Assembly (NCBI GenBank): GCA_964462015.1
Contig: CAYWXI010000026.1
Span: 233-64,232, forward strand
Source of the DNA: an uncultured Bacteroidales bacterium
GTDB taxonomy: Bacteria > Bacteroidota > Bacteroidia > Bacteroidales > JAEINX01
Reading direction: 5' to 3'
Length of the DNA: 64,000 bases
The notes under the pieces were generated by a model that saw nothing but the letters and a program-made list of their open reading frames with translations, searched no databases and was not told where the DNA came from. Within the stretch, counting starts at the first letter, position 1, and each line of letters begins with the position of its first letter. A program made the position numbers and the translations under genes. Below, piece by piece: positions 726 to 49,937 of this stretch.

Positions 726-1186
726 TATTACCCGTTTTTGGAGACTCATGTGTTTTCAATTGAGAAGTTTGGTTTTTCCGGGGAGAATGTTCCGGGAATT
801 GTTCACCGTGGAATGCTTTTGGTGAAGTAAAACCGTTAATTTTTCACTTGTGATCTTGTGATTTTCCATAAATCTGTTCGTAAACCAAATACCACTTTAA
901 TCCTTTCTGATAAACCGGGAAGGTGTAAATCTCATCTGTCGAGATATTCCGGGGATGTTTGTTGTAATACTCTATCAGACGCTTTGGCCCGTTAAGGTAA
1001 CTTATTATGGTTCGAGATGCAAGATTCTCTATCACCATACGTTGACGCATTTTTTCGAGAAGTGCATCTACTCCTTTTGATTTTAAAATACTTTTTTTGA
1101 CATAATACAAATTTTTTAATTTATCGAAATAAGTATAAACATTTTTTCTAACTTAGCCCCCCATGAAAGGGTTTAGTTCAACAGCA
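674..1186. repeat. Direct repeat copy 1 of a ~515-bp module (inner attC part + spacer + reverse int-N ORF + left arm of the long palindrome)
   Basis: Aligns by eye with 2533-3056. Positions 1047-1186 versus 2917-3056 showed no differences that I could see; the remainder is roughly 80 percent similar with small indels. Confidence 0.85.
844..1110 (-). CDS. Stand-alone tyrosine-recombinase N-terminal (SAM-like) domain protein, copy 1
   Basis: 88 aa with an apparent TTG start. The pattern LLEKMRQRMVIENLASRTIISYLNGPKRLIEYYNKHPRNISTDEIYTF matches the N-terminal helix bundle of Xer/IntI-type recombinases (LL..R..i......RT...Y......f......HP......ei..f). No catalytic domain follows in any frame. Confidence 0.55.
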   Translation of the reverse strand: MYYVKKSILKSKGVDALLEKMRQRMVIENLASRTIISYLNGPKRLIEYYNKHPRNISTDEIYTFPVYQKGLKWYLVYEQIYGKSQDHK

Positions 1187-1307
1187 AATCATAGCCCATA
1201 GCCGCTTTAGTGCTACCAAGACAAATGAGTATAAGCATAAACATACGATTAATCAAGAAACAAACTGCAAGTGAACGGCTACGGGCCATATTTGCAACAC
1301 GTTACCG
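1176..1307 (+). other. Long attC-like site L1 (132 bp)
   Basis: Left arm GTTCAACAGCAAATCATAGCCCATAGCCGC pairs with right arm GAACGGCTACGGGCCATATTTGCAACACGTTACCG. GTTCAAC fits RYYYAAC. The right end is GTT followed by the start of the next cassette. Confidence 0.6.
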
Positions 1308-1323
1308 CCAAGCAAGCCCCAAT

Positions 1324-1418
1324 GCGGAGAATGAAACAAGTATTCCGGGCAAAATTTGCGGAGAAAATAGCTTTTGCGGAGAATAAGCAGTATATTTGTC
1401 GCTTAATTTGCGGAGAAT
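1324..1418 (+). promoter_or_regulatory. Four direct GCGGAGAA(T/A) boxes upstream of and overlapping the Fic start codon
   Basis: GCGGAGAAT at 1324, GCGGAGAAA at 1358, GCGGAGAAT at 1376 and GCGGAGAAT at 1410, the last one containing the ATG at 1417. Spacing is 34/18/34 bp. Confidence 0.35.
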
Positions 1419-2538
1419 GAAAATTTACATACACGAAAAAGAAAACTGGACGGACTTCACTTGGGATAATAGACAAGTTATGTTAAAACTTGGAGAGGCA
1501 AGGAACCTGCAGGGAAAACTAATGGGTAAAATGGAATCCATAGGCTTTGATTTACAGGATGAAGCCGTATTGAATACACTAACTTTGGATGTTTTAAAAT
1601 CATTTGAAATTGAGGGTGATTATTTAGACAAAGTGCAAGTTCGGTCATCCATAGCAAAACGGCTTGGAATTGATATTGCAGGAGCGGTAGAATCAGAACG
1701 ACACGTTGAAGGTATAGTTGAGATGATGCTAAACGCCACACAACATTATGACTTACCCTTAACAAAAAACAGGCTGTTTGGATGGCATGCAGCACTATTC
1801 CCATCAGGCTGGAGTAATCTTTATAAAATAACTGTTGCTGATTGGAGAAAAGATACTACAGGGCCGATGCAGGTAGTTTCTGGTCCAATGGGGAAAGAAA
1901 AAGTTCATTTTCAGGCACCAAATTCTGACAGGGTAAAATTTGAAATGGAAGAATTCTTACAATGGCTTGAAGGCAAAACTGACATAGATTTAGTCCTTCA
2001 GGCAGCCATTGCACACTTATGGTTTGTGACAATTCATCCTTTTGATGATGGAAATGGAAGAATTGCAAGGGCCATCACCGATATGATATTGGCACGTTCA
2101 GACAATAGTAAGAGACGGTTTTATAGTATGTCTGCTCAAATCAGGATTGAAAGGAAACAGTATTATGAGAATCTTGAAAAAACACAAAAAGGTGATTCGG
2201 ACATTACAGAATGGATTCTATGGTTTTTACAATGTTTAATAAATTCAATTGAATCTACAGATGTTACTTTGTCCAGAATACTTTATAAAGCTGAATTTTG
2301 GAAGTTTCATTCCACTACAATTTTAAACGCAAGACAACAAAAAATAATAAAAAGACTACTCGATGGGTTTGATGGAAAGCTGACAACATCAAAATGGGGA
2401 AAAATTAATAAATGTTCACAAGACACAGCGCTTCGAGACATTCAAGACTTAATTCAAAAAAATATTTTAAGAAAGGAAGCAAGTGGAGGAAGAAGTACAA
2501 ACTATGAATTAGTAGAATTGCCAGGCGGTAACAAATAG
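1417..2538 (+). CDS. Fic family protein (AMPylase-type, with a Fic/DOC N-terminal domain)
   Basis: Contains the HPFDDGNGRIARA motif (HxFx[DE]GNGRxxR). The N-terminus MKIYIHEKENWTDFTWD is typical of this family. The track start at 1396 is a TTG, so the ATG at 1417 is preferred. Confidence 0.85.
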   Translation: MKIYIHEKENWTDFTWDNRQVMLKLGEARNLQGKLMGKMESIGFDLQDEAVLNTLTLDVLKSFEIEGDYLDKVQVRSSIAKRLGIDIAGAVESERHVEGIVEMMLNATQHYDLPLTKNRLFGWHAALFPSGWSNLYKITVADWRKDTTGPMQVVSGPMGKEKVHFQAPNSDRVKFEMEEFLQWLEGKTDIDLVLQAAIAHLWFVTIHPFDDGNGRIARAITDMILARSDNSKRRFYSMSAQIRIERKQYYENLEKTQKGDSDITEWILWFLQCLINSIESTDVTLSRILYKAEFWKFHSTTILNARQQKIIKRLLDGFDGKLTTSKWGKINKCSQDTALRDIQDLIQKNILRKEASGGRSTNYELVELPGGNK

Positions 2539-2601
2539 ACAGGATTATTCGGCGCAGCCGCATTAATCTTGTTCCTGAGGCCTCGGGATTGAACGTTACC
2601 C
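2524..2601 (+). other. Short attC-like site S2
   Basis: Sequence is GGCGGTAAC-AAATA-GACAGGATTA...TAATCTTGT...ATTGAAC-GTTACCC. The left end overlaps the Fic stop codon and is the exact reverse complement of GTTACCGCC at 1301-1309. The inner part is near-identical to S1. Confidence 0.6.
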
Positions 2602-3056
2602 GATTTTGGAGACTACTATGTGTTTTCAATTGCTAAGTTTGGTTTTGCGGGGAGGGATTATCCGGAGATTTTTCACCGTGGAATGTTTATGGTGAGGTAA
2701 AACTTATTATTTTTCAATTATGATGTTGTGATTTTCCATAAATCTACCCGTAAACCAAATACCACTTTAATCCTTTCTGATAAACCGGGAAGGTGTAGAT
2801 ATCATCTGTCGTGATTTTCCGCGGATGTTTGTTGTAATACTCTATCAGGCGTTTCGGCCCGTTTAAATAACTGATGATAGTTCGTGGCAAAAGGTTCTCA
2901 ATCACCATACGTTGACGCGTTTTTTCGAGAAGTGCATCTACTCCTTTTGATTTTAAAATACTTTTTTTGACATAATACAAATTTTTTAATTTATCGAAAT
3001 AAGTATAAACATTTTTTCTAACTTAGCCCCCCATGAAAGGGTTTAGTTCAACAGCA
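2533..3056. repeat. Direct repeat copy 2 of the ~515-bp module
   Basis: See copy 1 (674-1186). Confidence 0.85.
2744..2980 (-). CDS. Stand-alone tyrosine-recombinase N-terminal (SAM-like) domain protein, copy 2
   Basis: 78 aa paralog of 844-1110. In the codons for T-I-I-S-Y-L-N-G-P-K-R the two copies differ at 9 nucleotides and all are synonymous (ACC/ACT, ATA/ATC twice, TAC/TAT, CTT/TTA, CCA/CCG, AAG/AAA, CGT/CGC). Confidence 0.55.
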   Translation of the reverse strand: MYYVKKSILKSKGVDALLEKTRQRMVIENLLPRTIISYLNGPKRLIEYYNKHPRKITTDDIYTFPVYQKGLKWYLVYG

Positions 3057-3177
3057 CCTCATAGCACATGGCCACATTTGAGTCATCAAGAAAAATGAAT
3101 AGTAAATTAAACATACAGGAAATCAACATAAATTTGAGTAGCAAACGGCCACGTGCCATAGCTGCAACACGTTGACA
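3046..3177 (+). other. Long attC-like site L2 (132 bp)
   Basis: Left arm GTTCAACAGCACCTCATAGCACATGGCCAC pairs with right arm AAACGGCCACGTGCCATAGCTGCAACACGTTGACA. The arm sequences differ from L1 but pairing is retained (covariation). Confidence 0.6.
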
Positions 3178-3252
3178 ATCATTAAAATGATAATTATTAA
3201 AGGCGGAACCCGAAAGCCTATAAAGTAGGGATAAAATTAAAATCAATTTACA

Positions 3253-3825
3253 ATGAAAAAAATTATATTTAGTTTAATTATGGCTTTACTATCAACAATT
3301 TGCTTTGCACAAGAGAAGGGCACAAATGACATCTCATGTGGAGTCGGTTTTGCAACGACTAATGATCTTTTAAATTCTGTCGATGACATTATTTCAGATA
3401 TCTTTGGAGTATCTACCGCCAACATTTCGGCCACACCTGCAATCAGTTTAACATATAAGTATACTATTATGAATGATTGGCTATTATATGCAGATGGGAT
3501 TTATCAAACTATTAATAACGATCTTATAAAGCATGACACAATTATAGGTAATGCAAATAACAGATACTACACAATTGGATTTGGAACTGAATATCATTAT
3601 ATAAATAAGGATTGGTTTCAAATGTATTCAGGTGTAAGTTTAGCCTACACTTATCAAAATTCTAATTTTTCACAGTCATCAAACATTAAAGACGACACTG
3701 ACAACTATTTTAACTTTCAGGTTAATGCGGTAGGTCTTCGATTTGGAAAGCAACTTGCCGGAGTACTTGAATTAGGATTTGGGTATAAAGGAATTGCGAA
3801 TTTTGGTGTTTCTTATCAATTCTAA
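3253..3825 (+). CDS. Small outer-membrane beta-barrel protein (OmpW/porin-family-like)
   Basis: Has a signal peptide (MKKIIFSLIMALLSTICFAQ), alternating aromatic/hydrophobic strands and a C-terminal ...FGVSYQF. It starts 76 bp after L2. Confidence 0.6.
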   Translation: MKKIIFSLIMALLSTICFAQEKGTNDISCGVGFATTNDLLNSVDDIISDIFGVSTANISATPAISLTYKYTIMNDWLLYADGIYQTINNDLIKHDTIIGNANNRYYTIGFGTEYHYINKDWFQMYSGVSLAYTYQNSNFSQSSNIKDDTDNYFNFQVNAVGLRFGKQLAGVLELGFGYKGIANFGVSYQF

Positions 3826-4102
3826 TGTAATAAGAAAAACGATTTCTTTATTTCTCATGAATCTGAAGATAAAGAAAATTTGGCATTAAGTATCAACTGC
3901 TTTACCTTCTATTTGGATACAGCTCACCCACGGATAAAATCATATTATCGTTTTGAGTACCTGGAATTAAATTATATAAATCGAATTCCTTTAGGAACTT
4001 TTTTTAAAAATTTGTCATGAAAATATTTTTTTTATAAATTGCAAAATGATATTTACCGACAAATTTTTTAAAGATCAAACCACCGAGCGATATTGAGGTT
4101 TA

Positions 4103-4223
4103 GTTCAACAGCAAGTATATCACATAGCCGCGTAGCGGTCATTAAGACAAAGAATTGTAAAATTGATAATCGTACCAATCAGATTAAGGAACGGCTACAT
4201 GCCATACTTGCAAAACGTTAGCG
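4103..4223 (+). other. Long attC-like site L3 (121 bp)
   Basis: Left arm GTTCAACAGCAAGTATATCACATAGCCGCG pairs with right arm GGAACGGCTACATGCCATACTTGCAAAACGTTAGCG. It shares the flank GGTTTAGTTCAACAGCA and the ...TGCAAnACGTT end with L1 and L2. Confidence 0.6.
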
Positions 4224-4242
4224 GCAAGGTAATTAAGAGGAC

Positions 4243-4956
4243 ATGAAGGTATTAATCAATAAAGGAAGAAATTATTCTGGAAAATGGAATATTAACTATG
4301 TTTCAGTATCTAATAATATTTGTATAATGGATAACCATCGTGTTGCTTTTTGGTTTTGGATAAATAATTTAAATAAGACAAAAAAATATCGGATTATTCA
4401 TGCAGATAAGCACTTTGTCACTCAGGAAGGTTGCTTGAGTGAATGGAAACCAACTATACCTGAAAACCTTGAAGAATTGACATTGGAACAACTAATGGAA
4501 ATCGGTTATGAAAAAGAAAACTTTTTCTGTAAAACAATTCAATATGATAACTATCTAACGCTTTTTCATGAATATTATTCAGACAATGTTTTTGATTATT
4601 TTTTCTTTACTCATAATGTTGGTAAGTTGCCAACTAAATTAGATCATTTATATAATTGGGGCCCTAATGCACTTATTGAACAATTGCCTGACTTAATTTT
4701 TGATTGCGAAAGTAAATTAATTGTCAATATAGATTTGGATTACTTTTTTGTAAATGGACATATGCTATTATCTGATTATTCAATCAATCATATTCTTAAA
4801 ACTATAAAGAAAGGAATAGACAAAAAGAATGTGGAAATTTTAACCATAGCATTAAGTCCGGAAGATTGTGAAAATTGGACAAAAAGCATATCGTTTTTTA
4901 ACAAATATGTTTCTGAAATTTTAGAAATAGATAAAATTAAAATACCCAGCCGCTAA
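4243..4956 (+). CDS. Hypothetical protein, possibly UPF0489-like (family assignment from memory, uncertain)
   Basis: 237 aa. The motifs MDNHRVAFWFW and NIDLDYFF resemble UPF0489. It starts 20 bp after L3. Its last codons contain GCCGCTAAC, the reverse complement of GTTAGCGGC at 4217-4225. Confidence 0.4.
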   Translation: MKVLINKGRNYSGKWNINYVSVSNNICIMDNHRVAFWFWINNLNKTKKYRIIHADKHFVTQEGCLSEWKPTIPENLEELTLEQLMEIGYEKENFFCKTIQYDNYLTLFHEYYSDNVFDYFFFTHNVGKLPTKLDHLYNWGPNALIEQLPDLIFDCESKLIVNIDLDYFFVNGHMLLSDYSINHILKTIKKGIDKKNVEILTIALSPEDCENWTKSISFFNKYVSEILEIDKIKIPSR

Positions 4957-5027
4957 CATTTTAGGATTTATGGCTCAGTTGGCAAAAAAAAGCAAGAAAG
5001 CTTGAATCTTCTTGCTTTTTGTTTTAT
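4949..5027 (+). other. Terminal short attC-like site S3, overlapping a rho-independent terminator
   Basis: GCCGCTAAC-ATTTT-AGGATT...GAATCTT has the same AGGATT/AATCTT inner boxes as S1 and S2. It is followed by the hairpin AGCAAGAA-(loop)-TTCTTGCT plus TTTTTGTTTT (4991-5027). There is no similarity to array elements to the right of this point. Confidence 0.4.
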
Positions 5028-5682: not shown

Positions 5683-7356
5683 ATGAAAAAAACATTCACA
5701 ATCAATGTTAGTGGAATAATATTTCACATCGACGAAGACGCTTACGAAAGATTAAACAATTATATAAACAGCGTAAAGAACCATTTTTCAAAAGCTGATG
5801 GAAAAGAAGAAATAATAAATGATATCGAAAGTAGGATCGCCGAGATTCTGCAGGAAAAAATTACCGATAGTAAGCAGGTAATAAATATCGAGGATATCAA
5901 ACACGTGGTTTCAATTATGGGACAACCATTTGAATTTGATGAAGAAGAACAGGAAAAAAAAGAGGAATCATATTATTACCAGCCAAGGCCTGTAAAACGA
6001 CTATACAGAGATACTGAAGACAGCGTAATTGCTGGTATTAGTAGCGGTATAGCTGCTTATTTTCATACCGATCCTATTTGGTTTCGAATTGGATTTATTA
6101 TAGCTCTATTTTCTGGATTCGGATTTTTCCTTTACCTGATCTTGTGGATTGCAATTCCTGAAGCAAGGACAACAGCCGAACGACTTGAAATGAGAGGCGA
6201 AAAGGTCAATATTTCCAATATAGAAAAATCCATTAGTGATGAAGTCAATAATTTAAAAGATAAGATCAACGATCTTACTAATCAGGCTAAGACCACCTAC
6301 AAAAAAAAAAGTTCACAATATAAACCCGGCTACGATCACGTACTAATTGCTTTTGGGAATATTTTCAAATATTTCTTTAAAGCAATTATTATTTTCATAG
6401 GAGTTATTTTATTTATTCTTGGAATTTCTCTCTTTATCACATTTCTCGCTGCTATCTTTGGTTGGGGAGGATTCGTTTTCAGCAATAGTTCAGATATTTT
6501 CTTTGGCCAATTCCCGGTATTTGCCGACAGGTTTCTTTATGGAGTTGCTAACATTGGTTTACTTAAAGTCGGACTTTTCTTCTTTATTGGTGTCCCTTTA
6601 ATTATGCTATTATATAGCGCAATAAGATTAATTTTCCACATCGACAGGATTAGATATATCGGTTTTACAGCATTTAATATTTGGATAGCCGGACTAATTA
6701 TAACTGCGTTTTTTGCTTTTAGAATTCTTAAAGATTTCAGACATCAGGATTATTCGGAAAAAGAATTTGTAATTGAACAACCCATGTCGGATATTTTGTA
6801 CCTTGATGTTAAACAAAACCGAGGGTATCATTATTATAATGATGAAGAATATGCGATTGTCTTTGATAATGATGTAATTATTACTGAAGATGGAAGATTC
6901 TACCGTGAACCTAAGCTAAGATTTGAAGAAAGCAATACAGATCAATATCAAATGATAATTTATTCGTATGCAAGAGGTAAAACACGAAGTGCTGCCCGAA
7001 AGCTTGCAGAGAAGACAATTTATAATATTAACCAAAGAGATAGCTTACTTACATTTGATTCATATTTAGAGCTGCCAAATAATGTAAATTGGAGAGATCA
7101 ATATTTAAAAATTGAATTATTAATACCTCTTGGAAAAAAAATTCATTTAAGTTATGATATGGACGAAATAATTGAATATCATTTTAATTATTATCCATAC
7201 AATTTACCCGGTAAAACATGGATTATGACTACGAACGGACTTAAAAGGGAAAAAAATGAATTTAGTTTTAAAGATGAAACAGAAAGCACTGGGAATATAA
7301 AAAAAGAAATTAGAAAGAATCGTTTTGTACTAAATATAATATCATGTAGCTTATAA
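5683..7356 (+). CDS. PspC domain-containing membrane protein
   Basis: Contains the PspC motif LYRDTEDSVIAGISSGIAAYFHTDPIWFRIGFIIALF..LYLILWIAIPEA and multiple TM segments. Pairing with PadR is common in Bacteroidota. Confidence 0.8.
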   Translation: MKKTFTINVSGIIFHIDEDAYERLNNYINSVKNHFSKADGKEEIINDIESRIAEILQEKITDSKQVINIEDIKHVVSIMGQPFEFDEEEQEKKEESYYYQPRPVKRLYRDTEDSVIAGISSGIAAYFHTDPIWFRIGFIIALFSGFGFFLYLILWIAIPEARTTAERLEMRGEKVNISNIEKSISDEVNNLKDKINDLTNQAKTTYKKKSSQYKPGYDHVLIAFGNIFKYFFKAIIIFIGVILFILGISLFITFLAAIFGWGGFVFSNSSDIFFGQFPVFADRFLYGVANIGLLKVGLFFFIGVPLIMLLYSAIRLIFHIDRIRYIGFTAFNIWIAGLIITAFFAFRILKDFRHQDYSEKEFVIEQPMSDILYLDVKQNRGYHYYNDEEYAIVFDNDVIITEDGRFYREPKLRFEESNTDQYQMIIYSYARGKTRSAARKLAEKTIYNINQRDSLLTFDSYLELPNNVNWRDQYLKIELLIPLGKKIHLSYDMDEIIEYHFNYYPYNLPGKTWIMTTNGLKREKNEFSFKDETESTGNIKKEIRKNRFVLNIISCSL

Positions 7357-7404
7357 CGTTTTCAATAGCACTTCTTTCACTATTTTTTGAGTGATGTTTT
7401 TTTT

Positions 7405-7443
7405 ACCGGATCGAATATTTGATATTTTATCCGGTTTTTTGTT
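7405..7443 (+). terminator. Rho-independent terminator
   Basis: ACCGGAT-(17 nt)-ATCCGGT followed by a T run, 49 bp after the PspC-domain gene stop. Confidence 0.6.
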
Positions 7444-7549
7444 TTAAGAACGGTTCAATATATATACAATTCAAAAAAAATATTAATTTAGCAGCCGAAG
7501 CATTCGGATTGAATAGAAAACGTTTGTAAAATCTTAATAAAAAAGGAAA

Positions 7550-22004: not shown

Positions 22005-22425
22005 TAAAATACTTAAATACAATATCTTCCCTAACGGTTTAATCTTTGATAATAAATGAACTGAACATTACAATATTTGATTTATTCATTTTGCGTATTA
22101 TGTTATTTTCACATTTTAGCCACAAAGTATCAGCGATTTTCTATCAATAAATTAATTTAAGATTATATCTGTTTATTTATAAATTTACAATTTTCTTAAT
22201 GATCCTGAAAAGGTTTGAATAAGTATAGTTGAGAAAAAGAAAGAAGAATATCAAAATAGTCTGTTTCCAAAAATATTAGGGGCTTACTTCTGATGTTTGA
22301 ACAAACAGATGCTGATTATCTGATGAAAAAATAAGATATTCATCGTAAAATAAATTTAACCGGATAATAATAAATATCATTTTTTATTTTATTCCCCTTT
22401 GTACCGATTTATTAAGGACTTAGAC

Positions 22426-22635
22426 TTGGGGATTGTCTTCATCCCCTTGGGGATATTGTCTATCCCCCTGGGGATATTGTCTATCCCACTGGGGATAATG
22501 TTCATCCCCCTGGGGATAATATCCGTCCCCCTGGGGATAATGTCCGTCCCCTTGGGGATATTGTTCATCCCCTTGGGGATAATGTCCGTCCCCTTGGGGA
22601 TAATGTCTGTCCCCTTGGGGATATTGATGATCCCC
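22426..22635. repeat. Tandem array of ten exact-period 21-bp units, each carrying a GGGGAT..ATCCCC-type inverted repeat
   Basis: Units are YTGGGGATAWTGTYYRTCCCC. Units 2 and 3 are GGGGATA-TTGTC-TATCCC(C/A). The array is intergenic between convergent genes and has no spacers. Confidence 0.9.
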
Positions 22636-22717
22636 CAATATGTAATGATAGAATGAGTGAATGATAGAATGATAGAATAGTGCTTTTATTCAATCATTTA
22701 AGCATTCATTCATTCTA

Positions 22718-24296: not shown

Positions 24297-25543
24297 TCAT
24301 TCCTTTGTCATTTTCATTGCCTGTATTCCCCCTCCTTCAGTTTTATAATTAATTAAATCACCATTTATGGTATAAGGGAATATTTTAAAATAATAAACTG
24401 TTGCCGGTATTAAGTTTGTAAAAGTACATTTCTCTACTCCATAAGGAATGTTTTTTGCTGTGTCACTATCAGATACAGCAACATTATCAATAGGTATTTC
24501 AATAGCTTCAAAGCTTATATCACTCATAAGTACTAAATTGGCATGAGGTAAAATCCCGTTTACAGGATCATTCCATTGCAGCTCAATATTATGTGCCGAG
24601 AAATTCTCAGGGTAATTGCTTGGTTGTGGGGATGGAGCACCATGGAAATAAGTAGTGAAAGTTTCCCCGTAATCAGAACTATAATCAATATATATAAAGG
24701 AATACTGTGTTGCATAATCATAAGTTGAGCGTTTTACAAAAAACGAGCCGGGTTGTCGTCCGGCAGTATATTGTACACCCCAATTATAAATATCGATATA
24801 CCAAGATTCAAACTTTTCCGTCCAGGTATAGCCGGTATCAGCGCTATGGAATATCTTATAATGATAATCGGGCCACCAGGAAACAAGGTAAAGTTCACCC
24901 TCTTCCGTTCCCCTGCTAATTTGAGGATATTGTCCACTTACCGACCAAAAGGCGACTGAACTGTCAATTGGGATTTCAGTATAGGTGTTTGCATAATCTA
25001 ATGAGTGATAAAGATAAAAACCTTCTCCCGCATTACCATCAATACCATAAAACTCACCATCTAAATATCCTATGTCTGAAATAGGACAATTTGGCGGGTC
25101 AGAAACAACTTCAAAAGTTAGTGCATAATCATTACTTTTATGCAATAATCCCCAACCTCCTTTATAAATTACACCTTCAAAGCCCCCCCCCAATATCTGG
25201 TATAACTTATAAAATTCTCTCTAAAGTCCCAATTCACACCATAATCAAAACTCACCCAAAGCTCATTATTACCATAGTTATATAATGCTCCGGGGGTGGC
25301 ATCTCCCAAAACTTTTCCAATTCCCATTGCTCCCCCTGTAGGAGGATCTGTTGCTTCATATTGTACAGTAAGTGTTTCTCCATTATCAGCAGAACGGAAA
25401 ATTGCTTTATGGATAATTCCGTTTTCAGTAAACCAATGGTTGTTGATATAGATTTCACCGGGTGTAGCTCCTCTTGTTATCTGGGCTTGTGGGATGCTGC
25501 CAAGCAGGCAGCATAAAATTAGAAGTAAAATTGTTTTTTTCAT
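24297..25543 (-). pseudogene. Secreted beta-propeller/FN3-like protein split by a frameshift in a G9 tract (C9 on + strand, 25183-25191)
   Basis: The N-terminal ORF 25169-25543 has a signal peptide and ends ...SYTRYWGGALKV*. The C-terminal ORF 24297-25193 begins at the same run as (L)GGGFEGVIYKGGWG. A run of G10 would give ...RYWGGGFEGVIY... in one frame. Confidence 0.55.
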
Positions 25544-35207: not shown

Positions 35208-36032
35208 TTACCAATCCTTTTCAATTTTTACTCTTTGTGCTTTTGCGGCTTTTGCTTTTTTAAGCTTTTCAAGAGTTTCTTTTTCACCATTTTTTAAGGC
35301 CTGAAGCATACGCTCGGCATCCTTTTTTGAAATCTCCTTTGGTTTAGGTTGCTGTTTTTGTTGATCTTGTTTATCTTGTTTATCTTGTTCCTGTTTTTGT
35401 TGATCCTGATTTTGCTCCTGTTTGTCTTTATTTTCGTCTTGTTTATCTTCGTTTTTCTCTTGTTGGTCCTTATTTTGATCTTGTTTATCCTGATTTTGTT
35501 CTTTTTCGTCTTTATTCTGATCTTGCTTATCCTTATTTTCGTCTTGCTTGTCCTTATCTTGCTGGTCTTTATTATCCTTATTTTGATCTTGTTGTTGCTG
35601 TTGCTTTTTCAGCAATTGTTTTGCATATTCAAGATTATACTTTGTTTCTTTATCTTTGGGATTATTTCTAAGCGCATTTTTATAAGCTTCAATACTTTCT
35701 TCAATTTTCTGCTGGTCTAATAATGAATTTCCAAGATTATGATAAGCATCTGCTTTAACTTTTTTACTTAGATTTTTTGAAGCAATATCGTTAAACAATT
35801 TTGAAGCTTCTTCATAATTTTTTTGTTCATATAAAGCATCAGCAAGATTAAAGTTTCCTTTGAATGACTTTGGAGCAACCTCCAATGATTTCCGGTATTC
35901 AATTTCAGCTTCCGGATATTTTTTTTCTTCGAATAACTTATTTCCTTCACGAATTAAGGAATTTTCGTTTTGTGAGAATCCATTAATCGAAAACAAGAGA
36001 ATTATTGAAAAAATTGTTAGTATGTTTTTCAT
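35208..36032 (-). CDS. batC: BatC-like TPR protein with a long K/Q/D/E low-complexity region
   Basis: Has a signal peptide and TPR repeats, followed by QQQQQDQNKDNKDQQDKDKQDENKDKQ.... Confidence 0.65.
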   Translation of the reverse strand: MKNILTIFSIILLFSINGFSQNENSLIREGNKLFEEKKYPEAEIEYRKSLEVAPKSFKGNFNLADALYEQKNYEEASKLFNDIASKNLSKKVKADAYHNLGNSLLDQQKIEESIEAYKNALRNNPKDKETKYNLEYAKQLLKKQQQQQDQNKDNKDQQDKDKQDENKDKQDQNKDEKEQNQDKQDQNKDQQEKNEDKQDENKDKQEQNQDQQKQEQDKQDKQDQQKQQPKPKEISKKDAERMLQALKNGEKETLEKLKKAKAAKAQRVKIEKDW

Positions 36033-47714: not shown

Positions 47715-49937
47715 CTATCTTATTATCAATTTCTCTCTGATTTTCGATTCGTTTAAGACCAATTCAATAATATAAACTCCTTGCCGAAGCATTGAAACAT
47801 CAACTGTATTGTTAATTTGTTTTTCATATAATACCTTTTCCCCAATTTGATTATAAATATTTATTTCTTTAATTGTAACATCAGAATGACATAATAAAGT
47901 AATTGTTTTTTTTGCAGGATTAGGGAAGATTTTTATATCATTTCCTGTATAATAGAATTCAATTGTTCCTAATGCGCAAGCTTCTTGAACTTTCGCTTCA
48001 TAACTACATTCCGCAATATTATTATCAATAGAAACATCAGCAGAGGAATTGGAAATAAAATCACAAATACTTTTTACATGGCATGTAGATAAAGAATTAT
48101 TTTGTACTATTTGTAGTTTAGTAATTGAATATGGATTTATGTTTTCAAGACCAGTAAGGCTTGTTAGAGCATCATTGTTACGAATACTTATAAACCCATT
48201 AATTGCTGATAAACTTTCTAATTCTGAAAGGTCGGTTAATGCAGAATTATTCGATAAAGCAAAATAGGTATCAATTGTTGTTAAATTTTCGAGACCAGAT
48301 AAATTTGTCAGGGCATCGCAACCTGAAATAATGAGTTCTCCAATATGAGTTACATTATTCAAACCATATAAATTTTGAATTGCATCGCAGCCACTTATGT
48401 TTAATATACCCCCAATATAAGTTAAATTGTTCAGGCCTGTTAAATTTGTTAGTGAAGCATTGCCATTAATCCTTAAGCTTTCCCCAATATAGTTCAGGTT
48501 TTCAAGGCCAATTAAACTCGCCAATAATGGATTACCACCATGATCTCCACCAATAATAAGGCTACTTTTAATATTAGAAAGATTTCCCAAACCCGTTATA
48601 CTTGTCAAAGCATTGTTCTTTTCAATCCTTATATCTTCCCCAATATATGACAAATTGTTCAAGCCTGCTAAACTGGATAGGGTATCATTATACTTAATGT
48701 CAAGGTATTTCCCAATGGAAATTAAACTGTTTAATCCTATTAAACTTATTAAGGAATTATTTTTTTCAATTCTTAGAAATCCTCCAATAGAAGTCACATT
48801 ATCAAGTCCTGATAAATTTATTAGAGCATCATTATAGTATATCCATAGAGATCCGCCTATTGAAGACAAACCGTTAAGACCTGTTAAACTGGTTAGGTAA
48901 TCCTGCTCATAAAAAAATAATTTCCCCCCTATTGTGGTTAAATTTTCAAGGCCAATTAAACTTACTAGTCCATTATGTCCTTCAATTGACATATCACCTT
49001 CAATAGTTTTCAAATTAGTTAGGCCCGTTAAATTAGTTAGTGAGGAATTGTTGTAAATAAGCAGATTTCCACCAATAGATGTTAAATTTTCAAGACCTGA
49101 TAAACTCGTCAGCCCCTTATTATTTTCAATATGAAGGTCATCACTAATAAAACAAAGAGAATCCAGTCCTGTACAATCTGTCAACCCAAAGTTTTTATTT
49201 ATCAGCATGTTTCCTCCAATTGAATCCAATCCATACAATCCAGATAAACTTGATAATGTACTATTGCTATACAACGAAAAGTCACCTCCTATATAAGTTA
49301 AACTTTCAAGACCTGACAAGTTGGATAATTCTTGGCAGTAATTAATTACCAGATTGCTATCTATAGAACTTATGTTATTTAATCCCGACAAACTAGTAAG
49401 GGCATCGTTATTTATAATTGAAAGGCATCCTCCAATGCTAGTCACATTGTCCAATCCAGTAAAACTGGTCAGGACATCGTTACCAATAATCTTAATGTCT
49501 CCCCCAATGGAAGTAACATTGTCAAGGGTTGTTAAACTTGTCAGGGTACCGTTGTTCTGAATCCATAGGTGTCCTCCAATAGAAGTTACATTGTCTAGCC
49601 CCGTTAGACTGATCAGTTCATATTCGCTAGAAATATATAGGTCTCCCGCGATGGAAGTTACATTATCCAGCCCCGTTAAACTGGTCAGGGCATAATTGTT
49701 ATGAATCCAAAGATCTCCCCAAAAAGCAGTCAAAACATTTAATCCATTCAAATTAGCGATATCATTTCCTGTAATTTCAACATCTCCTTCTATTTCAGTA
49801 CAGTTAGGGTAATTGGTTTGAAAATTGTCTATCTGTGCTTGATTTGAAAATGTAATGCCTTCTGGCAGGCAGGATTGAGATAATGATATAGTCCGAATGA
49901 TTAAGGATAAAACTATAAATAAAGTTAATTTCTTCAT
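47715..49937 (-). CDS. Leucine-rich-repeat surface protein with a T9SS C-terminal sorting domain
   Basis: About 25 tandem ~23-aa units (LTSLTGLDNVTSIGGxLxIxxN) with a signal peptide. The C-terminus is IKIFPNPAKKTITL...GVYIIEL. Confidence 0.75.
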   Translation of the reverse strand: MKKLTLFIVLSLIIRTISLSQSCLPEGITFSNQAQIDNFQTNYPNCTEIEGDVEITGNDIANLNGLNVLTAFWGDLWIHNNYALTSLTGLDNVTSIAGDLYISSEYELISLTGLDNVTSIGGHLWIQNNGTLTSLTTLDNVTSIGGDIKIIGNDVLTSFTGLDNVTSIGGCLSIINNDALTSLSGLNNISSIDSNLVINYCQELSNLSGLESLTYIGGDFSLYSNSTLSSLSGLYGLDSIGGNMLINKNFGLTDCTGLDSLCFISDDLHIENNKGLTSLSGLENLTSIGGNLLIYNNSSLTNLTGLTNLKTIEGDMSIEGHNGLVSLIGLENLTTIGGKLFFYEQDYLTSLTGLNGLSSIGGSLWIYYNDALINLSGLDNVTSIGGFLRIEKNNSLISLIGLNSLISIGKYLDIKYNDTLSSLAGLNNLSYIGEDIRIEKNNALTSITGLGNLSNIKSSLIIGGDHGGNPLLASLIGLENLNYIGESLRINGNASLTNLTGLNNLTYIGGILNISGCDAIQNLYGLNNVTHIGELIISGCDALTNLSGLENLTTIDTYFALSNNSALTDLSELESLSAINGFISIRNNDALTSLTGLENINPYSITKLQIVQNNSLSTCHVKSICDFISNSSADVSIDNNIAECSYEAKVQEACALGTIEFYYTGNDIKIFPNPAKKTITLLCHSDVTIKEINIYNQIGEKVLYEKQINNTVDVSMLRQGVYIIELVLNESKIREKLIIR

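Follow-up and report, generated by a model that had tools for sequence, protein, structure and literature searches.

The closest described counterparts of the elements reported here are the attC sites of integrons (59-base elements), above all the long, homogeneous ones of sedentary chromosomal integrons such as the VCRs of Vibrio; attC sites are imperfect palindromes that are kept in structure and not in sequence. Their RYYYAAC/GTTRRRY boxes hold a GTT crossover triplet, one strand folds better than the other and has a fixed unpaired base, their lengths fall within 57-141 nt, and they stand at the 3' end of promoterless open reading frames (ORFs) that share one orientation and are packed tightly, in cassettes whose start is complementary to R'', with toxin-antitoxin, Fic and resistance genes as cargo. 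In other systems, gene modules on Acinetobacter plasmids are bounded by pdif sites for Xer-group recombinases, with no dedicated IntI, and IS1111-attC insertion sequences (IS) and group IIC-attC introns are found specifically in or beside the attC sites of arrays. Bacteroidota proper are generally considered to have almost no integrons. Here we analyze 64,000 nucleotides from an uncultured Bacteroidales bacterium (contig CAYWXI010000026.1, positions 233 to 64,232 of the forward strand; hereafter the window), whose first 5 kb consist of co-oriented ORFs with palindromic sites between them. Three long sites, L1, L2 and L3, resemble attC sites in the features given above, and they are probably attC-type recombination sites in an integron-like array, recombined by the IntI-like recombinase of a mobile module that also carries an IS91-family transposase gene.

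The initial annotation of the window had described three palindromes with conserved ends at 1176-1307, 3046-3177 and 4103-4223, and these are real. The spans run from R'' to R', opening with GTTCAAC (at 1176, 3046 and 4103) and closing with GTTACCG (1307), GTTGACA (3177) and GTTAGCG (4223), and the sites measure 132, 132 and 121 nt (129, 129 and 118 nt on a slightly tighter trim). A common 17-mer, GGTTTAGTTCAACAGCA, begins 6 nt further left, at 1170, 3040 and 4097, and the right-end motif TGCAAMACGTT lies at 1293, 3163 and 4209. The arm sequences given for the three sites were all found in the sequence. A chance palindrome was considered and is ruled out by the match counts of GGTTTAGTTCAACAGCA, with three exact matches in the window against 0.17 expected at up to three mismatches, and by the scores of covariance model R1, built from the family alignment described below. 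L1, L2 and L3 score 98.2, 91.1 and 79.8 bits (E 1e-17 to 3e-22), no other place in the 64-kb window exceeds 13 bits with R1, and when run on 582 kb of unrelated DNA, in which both end anchors are matched by chance in places, it scores 19 bits at best.

When folded on both strands, each site forms a long imperfect hairpin. The R'' box RYYYAAC (here GTTCAAC) and the R' box GTTRRRY pair to give an R box with the crossover triplet, next to a spacer of 5x0 (or 5x1) unpaired nucleotides. The fold energies of L1, L2 and L3 are -16.7, -16.6 and -16.0 kcal/mol on the minus strand against -12.6, -8.5 and -14.9 kcal/mol on the plus strand, the minus strand being more stable because the A-opposite-C positions turn into G.T pairs on it.

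The sites belong to a family of at least 90 members, spread over two complete Myroides plasmids and about 50 contigs from Bacteroidota. The GTDB species representatives were searched in one scan with the pattern GTTCAACAGC-N85-115-GCAAMACGTT, which gave 119 loci; 48 matches in 47 of these are hairpins of the L kind, and the remainder are chance matches to the two anchors. The hairpin loci are nearly all from Bacteroidota (Saprospiraceae, Flavobacteriia, Marinilabiliaceae, Chitinophagales and Sphingobacteriales). Alignment A2, from which R1 was built, holds 51 minus-strand sequences, and its consensus fold has an R box (TAACG/TGTTG), then TTTT without pairing partners, a stem of 18 bp that contains a 2x2 loop and, in the 3' arm, a one-base bulge, and a loop of ~80 nt. 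The AAC/GTT pairs are invariant in all 51 sites, and site length is almost constant, about 90% of the 51 relatives measuring 128-130 nt on the tighter trim.

The claim that the internal arms differ between sites and yet pair within each is borne out by covariation in the family, the check on genomic copies being strongly positive. Compensatory changes are seen in 14 of the 23 pairs, a single pair showing as many as five pair types; of the cells, 97.1% are paired, against 73.8% in shuffled alignments and 38-54% with partners slid; doubly changed cells number 227 against 68; and the covariation score is 0.559, against 0.142 shuffled and 0.045-0.110 slid. R1 adds about 40 sites within the family loci. 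In a second alignment of 33 additional, mostly cargo-associated sites, which were picked by R1 and are hence biased toward its structure, 18 of the 23 pairs are compensatory; the slid and negative controls indicate that the covariation signal in sites found by R1 is real. The A-opposite-C mismatch, which the initial annotation had noted at the same arm position in L1-L3, is fixed as a G.T wobble in 50 of the 51 family members and in 32 of the 33 further sites.

These wobbles would also be explained as G.U pairs if the hairpins were a structured RNA transcribed off the minus strand, such as the recombinase gene's leader, since the wobble positions pair on the minus strand alone and this is the sense strand of that gene. 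We regard such an RNA as very improbable. The Rfam scan gave no family matching at L1-L3 at E <= 1 (attC has no Rfam entry), most members of the family lie between cargo genes of the other strand with no minus-strand gene downstream, and the breakpoints at triplets and the complementarity between cassette start and R'' at 1-2.5 kb, both described below, are features of DNA.

The loops of the family have a nearly constant length and a periodic nCAC motif, in which they differ from attC. In alignment A2 (e.g., L006:2603-2750 and L026:1366-1514) the motif recurs at +35/36, +54, +72 and +91 relative to the minus-strand AACG anchor; the loops of L1-L3 seem, by eye, to retain just the first and last copies. 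Since classical attC loops vary, the motif may provide binding sites for an accessory protein.

The arrangement of the sites is that of cassettes. In 22 of 22 loci with more than one site, all sites are on one strand, at a median spacing of about 1 kb (cluster 0.6-1.5 kb). Typically, a co-oriented upstream ORF stops 10-35 nt 5' of the site, and 20-60 nt 3' of it the next ORF begins, downstream neighbour genes being co-oriented in 64 of 72 cases. In the window, the segments start after the preceding GTT with the reverse complement of the bases before the AAC of the next site. The start of the cassette that encodes a Fic protein, GTTACCGCC (1301-1309), is complementary to the next R'', GGCGGTAAC (2524-2532), at 9 of 9 positions, as is the start of the UPF0489-like cassette, GTTAGCGGC (4217-4225), to GCCGCTAAC (4949-4957). 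For the TacAT cassette, the start GTTGGGCAC, at position 1555 of the overlapping Logan contig L120, matches GTGCCCAAT (665-673) at 8 of 9 positions, and for two mini-modules GTTGGACTATTACCC matches GGGTTTAGTTCAAC at 11 of 14. Across the sites compared, complementary start and R'' stand 1-2.5 kb apart; at the 0.6-1.3 kb found in the window, local RNA structure is no explanation. Judged from the sequence, this complementarity is the signature of a cassette that would circularise through its own attC site, and a circular cassette intermediate predicts it.

Many of the related contigs stop about 110-130 nt left of the site, which implies that this flank is multicopy. Most loci with enough left flank have a gene for a tyrosine recombinase of 260-310 aa on the opposite strand, starting 60-240 nt from the site and truncated in several loci, and in related loci this gene is followed by one for an IS91-family Y2 transposase (NF033538, E 1.7e-128). 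Recombinase and transposase adjoin the site in every locus long enough to reveal them, under annotations as various as ISWz1, XerD, intI and IS91 family transposase. A short hairpin of another class (S) is always present some 250-300 nt past the transposase stop. Next to it comes GTTGAAC-nnn-ACCTTCGGT, whose reverse complement, ACCGAAGGT-nnn-GTTCAAC, is found where L begins on its left. This extension of the module end co-varies, by eye, among the module subfamilies (ACCTTCGGT, ATCCC, GCTTCGCT and CACCC); the match between module start and L flank rests on the subfamily pattern, the count-based control being contaminated by other family sites. An extended left end, (ACCGAAGG/GGG)TTTAGTTCAAC, defines the L subclass at the boundary of the mobile module, which begins with its complement, and in a circular form of the module the two ends would pair to give a 19-bp R box.

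The module recombinase is closest to archaeal XerA and the integron integrases. Against TIGR02249 it scores 146-164 bits, under the integron-integrase cut-off of 265, with the match falling in two stretches, and its distance from box I to box II is Xer-like, at 92-93 aa; the distance in IntI is ~130 aa. A published classification places the IS91 recombinases in an integron-like subgroup without the IntI insertion. The L family differs from attC systems in having a recombinase without the IntI-specific insertion, and in that this recombinase rides inside the array as a multicopy module with an IS91 transposase. No other kind of tyrosine recombinase, canonical IntI included, was found in the related 8-kb loci, of which there are about 50. 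The module recombinase has homologues with 34-47% identity on 104 plasmids, those of Persicobacter, Arenibacter, Tenacibaculum, Sphingobacterium and Chryseobacterium among them; this set includes 48 Acinetobacter and 15 Clostridium records.

Two remnants of the module are present in the window. A repeat of 456 bp (720-1175 and 2590-3045) carries a minus-strand ORF of 88 and 78 aa, respectively, whose first ~50 residues match the N-terminal SAM-like phage-integrase domain (PF13495, E 2e-7 and 1e-6). The two copies, B and D, are 100% identical between 1050-1186 and 2920-3056 (137 nt, up to GTTCAACAGCA), about 85% identical in the body and about 68% inside the hairpin. Both units (720-1301 and 2589-3171) hold the module start, ~50 recombinase codons and the L end, with the other genes gone. 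As both module halves are kept, they are deletion derivatives of the module, of about 580 bp each, and they fit a non-autonomous derivative of the kind of a miniature inverted-repeat transposable element (MITE), with both ends, lost genes and multiple copies. L1 and L2 each close one of these derivatives, and L3 closes a cargo cassette.

Related truncated forms of the module turn up in other metagenomes, and a search for full-length relatives of the window's recombinase fragment gave only two truncated proteins. A 97-aa protein in ENA (P0001) is 92% identical to the fragment and runs on into a CPAC...MVKV tail; it may be another deletion derivative of the module. By eye this tail resembled the zinc-ribbon end of an IS91 transposase, but its BLASTP similarity to IS91 transposases was not significant. 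The region left of L3 (3826-4096), searched for a decayed module, showed no significant similarity at the DNA or protein level.

The breakpoints between copies point to recombination sites. Homology ends at the conserved AAC and GTT triplets or a few bases away. A particular hairpin core (AACAGCAC...CTGCA...CGTT), 91-99% identical, has unrelated flanks on both sides at L063:3836-3983, L091, L007, L006, L022, L105:7622-7764, L083:267-405 and L080:1367-1511, in Chitinophaga, Flavobacterium, Crocinitomicaceae, Saprospiraceae and other metagenome-assembled genomes, and this core, at 97-99% identity, stands beside recombinase genes in some taxa and beside cargo genes in others. On the Myroides plasmid p63039, two copies have the same module and hairpin without a difference and part directly after GTT, and two copies of aadS are alike from GTT onward with different hairpins before them. 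Co-inheritance of cargo gave no clue to which hairpin goes with which segment, the single cargo common to different loci (L040 and L118, 78% identity) having unrelated hairpins on both sides. Parsing all cassettes in a single direction was also tried, and neither a forward nor a reverse parse fits every breakpoint. Together with the covariation, the start/R'' complementarity and the co-oriented arrays, the triplet breakpoints support the initial proposal that the palindromes are recombination sites folded from a single strand, and not an RNA or chance palindromes.

The two classes of site also differ in the strand that folds better. Of the 51 L sites, 35 are more stable when folded on the minus strand (mean 2.0 kcal/mol, p about 1e-4), and 9 of 11 S sites on the plus strand. 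These opposite preferences, which set the L and S classes apart from attC, are consistent with module and cargo cassettes using opposite strands. In one reading, which would reconcile breakpoints at both triplets with an S hairpin that accompanies the module, module and S hairpin would form a cassette, oriented recombinase-forward, that inserts at an L-type triplet, module and cargo cassettes then using opposite strands.

The gene pair of the module is identical in kind to that of the ISWz1/IS91 elements of the tet(X)/catB/aadS/blaMYO regions of Weeksellaceae and Flavobacteriaceae, and it lies beside an L site in every full-length relative; multiple copies, linkage to resistance clusters and circular forms are common to both. 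The hairpins could also be the ori/ter ends of an ISWz1-like IS91 element, nicked by its HUH Y2 transposase, with the arrays built by one-ended rolling-circle transposition and the mini-units as MITE-like products. The GTTC within the R'' box, which we take to be the IS91 target tetranucleotide, would agree with this, as do the L and S hairpins on either side of the recombinase-transposase pair in each full copy, the multicopy state of the module seen in the contig breaks left of L, the Y2 transposase gene that adjoins the site in related loci (though lost from the window copies) and the two ~580-bp derivatives in the window. Papers on these regions describe the gene pair as ISWz1 (IS91 family) with XerD or intI and attribute the clusters to IS91 composites or to one-ended transposition; in one of the papers, circular forms were detected by PCR. 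No description of hairpin sites, single-gene cassettes or R boxes was found in the open-access literature on these regions.

Nevertheless, we consider it improbable that the hairpins are IS91 ends. The sites are not confined to the ends of the element; they also bound single cargo genes far from any transposase (aadS, blaMYO-1, blaOXA and GNAT), and five consecutive cassettes are found in locus L110. Unlike the known ISWz1 elements, the module is present in the window only as two deletion derivatives. Triplets and boxes are conserved and agree with the integron core site, and the 9-bp complementarity between start and R'' suits a circular cassette, not a rolling-circle end. The variable stems, strictly paired over 18 bp in 128-nt sites, are also unlike the end palindromes of IS91, which are short. 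The suspicion that the sites might turn out to be ends of an IS or MITE family therefore held in part: L1 and L2 do terminate decayed IS91-family (ISWz1-like) modules, but like sites bound ordinary cargo genes. As cargo genes are also bounded and the module recombinase falls in the integron-integrase subgroup, the link to an IS refines the reading of L1-L3 as attC-type sites and does not overturn it.

Complete examples of such arrays are present on two Myroides plasmids. The plasmid pFM-G13 of Myroides odoratimimus has one L site, the recombinase, the IS91 transposase, an S hairpin, a segment of three genes and another long site; the one other recombinase in its PLSDB gene table is of the serine type. 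On p63039, from the clinical strain PR63039, four recombinase-IS91 modules are interspersed with tet(X2), catB, aadS (two copies), blaMYO-1, blaOXA and a GNAT gene. R1 detected eight L-type sites on this plasmid, on the same strand throughout, and no site outside those eight. They separate an exonuclease gene from tet(X2), tet(X2) from a module, catB from a module, aadS from a module, aadS from blaMYO-1, blaMYO-1 from blaOXA, blaOXA from the GNAT gene and the GNAT gene from a module. R-box complementarity was also found for the aadS and blaMYO-1 cassettes and for the exonuclease-BRCT pair. In this pair, an ORF with an exonuclease domain (6939-7538 on p63039) and one with a BRCT domain (24346-24804) each abut one copy of ISBbi1 and bear complementary halves of one R box, GTTATATGCC and GGCATATAAT, which looks like one cassette split by an IS-mediated inversion. 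No further tyrosine recombinase or IntI is listed for pFM-G13 or p63039 in the PLSDB gene tables, which are incomplete.

It is unlikely, in our view, that L1-L3 are ordinary attC sites served by a classical IntI upstream or elsewhere in the genome, with the recombinase-IS91 modules as passengers or parasites. The anatomy of the sites and the architecture of the cassettes are canonical, as such an explanation needs, and the array continues beyond the left window edge. The IntegronFinder 2.0 paper reports Bacteroidetes with only In0 elements (an integrase without recognised attC) and one Salinibacter integron, and In0 elements would suit attC sites missed by its model. However, a classical IntI was seen neither in the about 50 related loci nor among the annotated genes of the two array-bearing plasmids, and the only tyrosine recombinases present are the short IS91-linked ones, beside sites with an extended R box that is specific to them. 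None of the three alternatives, structured RNA, IS91 ends or classical IntI, accounts for the full observations as well as attC-type sites recombined by the module recombinase.

In the mechanism that we propose, the long imperfect hairpin would act as a folded single strand, and the module recombinase, supplied in trans in the source genome, would cut and rejoin this strand at the AAC/GTT triplet in the manner of IntI. The strand used would be the minus strand for L-type sites, and the module with its short S hairpin would behave as a cassette in the opposite orientation; as a guess, the rolling-circle transposase may provide the single-stranded copies. It is the strand and the recombinase that we infer in this reading.

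Several points weigh against it. Recombination itself was not observed in this sequence analysis, no full-length recombinase or transposase gene is present in the 64-kb window, and the part of the array that runs past the left edge leaves room for a canonical IntI upstream. The gaps in the PLSDB tables make the lack of an annotated IntI weak evidence. The unpaired spacer is asymmetric, which the central spacer of classical attC is not, and the bulged base in the 3' arm of the minus strand, the better-folding one, is C or A in the family where canonical attC has G and T. Breakpoints fall at both triplets, as they do not in attC, and a one-crossover integron model does not predict this. The core of the S hairpin is always found with the module, yet its outer R'' half is part of the cargo cassette to the left. 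Finally, some cassettes of p63039 (blaOXA, tet(X2) and GNAT) match poorly in R-box complementarity.

The remaining two systems are more distant. Like the L family, pdif systems have small modules between sites of Xer-group tyrosine recombinases, but a pdif site is dif-like, double-stranded and 28 bp long, and successive ones alternate in orientation, whereas L sites are covarying hairpins of ~130 nt in a single orientation. The IS1111-attC elements and group IIC-attC introns have a DEDD transposase or a reverse transcriptase and no attC-like ends; the ends of the module form an R box.

The array accounts for the first 5 kb of the window, which hold its distal end, and abuts housekeeping genes on its 3' side (a PadR-like regulator, a PspC-like protein, pyrH and frr). 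The order of the cassettes is TacAT, mini-module, Fic, mini-module, outer membrane protein (OMP)-like and UPF0489-like, and this is an integron-like array of promoterless gene cassettes. All features given here are on the plus strand unless stated otherwise. The window opens in the end of a TacA antitoxin gene, followed by the gene for the TacT-like GNAT toxin of a TacA/TacT pair (154-657). This cassette, whose start GTTGGGCAC lies upstream of the window, is closed by S1 (665-725), a short-class site with R'' GTGCCCAAT, a 14-bp stem in which G.T occurs on the plus strand, and R' GTTGGAC. Mini-cassette B (720-1301), the first of the two module derivatives, starts with TTGGACTATTACCC, the complement of GGGTTTAGTTCAAC at L1, and keeps the first ~50 codons of the tyrosine-recombinase gene on the minus strand (ORF 844-1110, PF13495). 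It ends with L1 (1170-1309), which has R'' GTTCAAC at 1176-1182, GTT at 1301-1303 and R' GTTACCGCC at 1301-1309. The next cassette (1302-2588) encodes a DUF4172-Fic protein (1417-2538), within the last codons of which (2524-2538) sits the R'' GGCGGTAAC of the short-class site S2 (2524-2601); S2 and S1 are 93% identical over 42 nt.

Mini-cassette D (2589-3171), the second copy of the B-type derivative, has its recombinase fragment in a minus-strand ORF at 2744-2980 and ends with L2 (3040-3179; R'' 3046-3052, GTT 3171-3173, R' GTTGACAAT). The OMP beta-barrel-like protein (3253-3825; weak Pfam match) is the cargo of the cassette 3172-4217, closed by L3 (4097-4225; R'' 4103-4109, GTT 4217-4219, R' GTTAGCGGC at 4217-4225), in which the loop is 11 nt shorter. 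Between L2 and the OMP-like ORF, at 3200-3231 on the plus strand, the Rfam DUF805b motif matched with 31.7 bits (E 3.8e-6), under its gathering score of 35.6. The last cassette (4218 to about 4978) encodes a 237-aa protein with a weak UPF0489 match (4243-4956), whose stop codon is the TAA within GCTAAC of the R'' GCCGCTAAC of the last site in the array, a truncated short site (4949-4983; R' GTTGGC).

Upstream of the window, the array goes on in Logan contig L120, which adds 1.8 kb with a long site (L120:1431-1557) and a half site. L120 and L121, two independent short-read contigs with an identical TacT gene, both break inside S1, which implies that the S hairpin or what comes after it is repeated in those populations. 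Elsewhere in the window, two tandem arrays with a 21-nt period (22406-22657 and 35339-35600) and a repeat with a 72-nt period in which a 44-nt unit occurs 14 times (48336-49687) are unrelated to the sites.

On clinical Myroides plasmids, like sites stand between resistance genes, tet(X) and metallo-beta-lactamase genes among them. The clusters of tet(X), metallo-beta-lactamase, OXA, aadS and catB genes in Myroides, Chryseobacterium and Elizabethkingia are now attributed to IS91/ISWz1 composites; if the sites work as attC, these resistance clusters would be arrays of single-gene cassettes, with a predictable unit of mobility, a site signature that can be searched for (covariance model R1) and a candidate recombinase. 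They would also be a natural experiment on the recognition of folded DNA by a recombinase of the Xer/IntI group without the IntI insertion, and a first example of folded-DNA sites on which a tyrosine recombinase and a rolling-circle transposase are coupled. More tentatively, Bacteroidota may hold a second, IntI-independent kind of integron, with attC-like hairpins, a recombinase without the IntI insertion that is itself a multicopy cassette coupled to an IS91 transposase, and opposite strands for module and cargo, which would assemble the clusters of tet(X), blaMYO, blaOXA, aadS and catB in Flavobacteriia instead of IS91 composite transposition.

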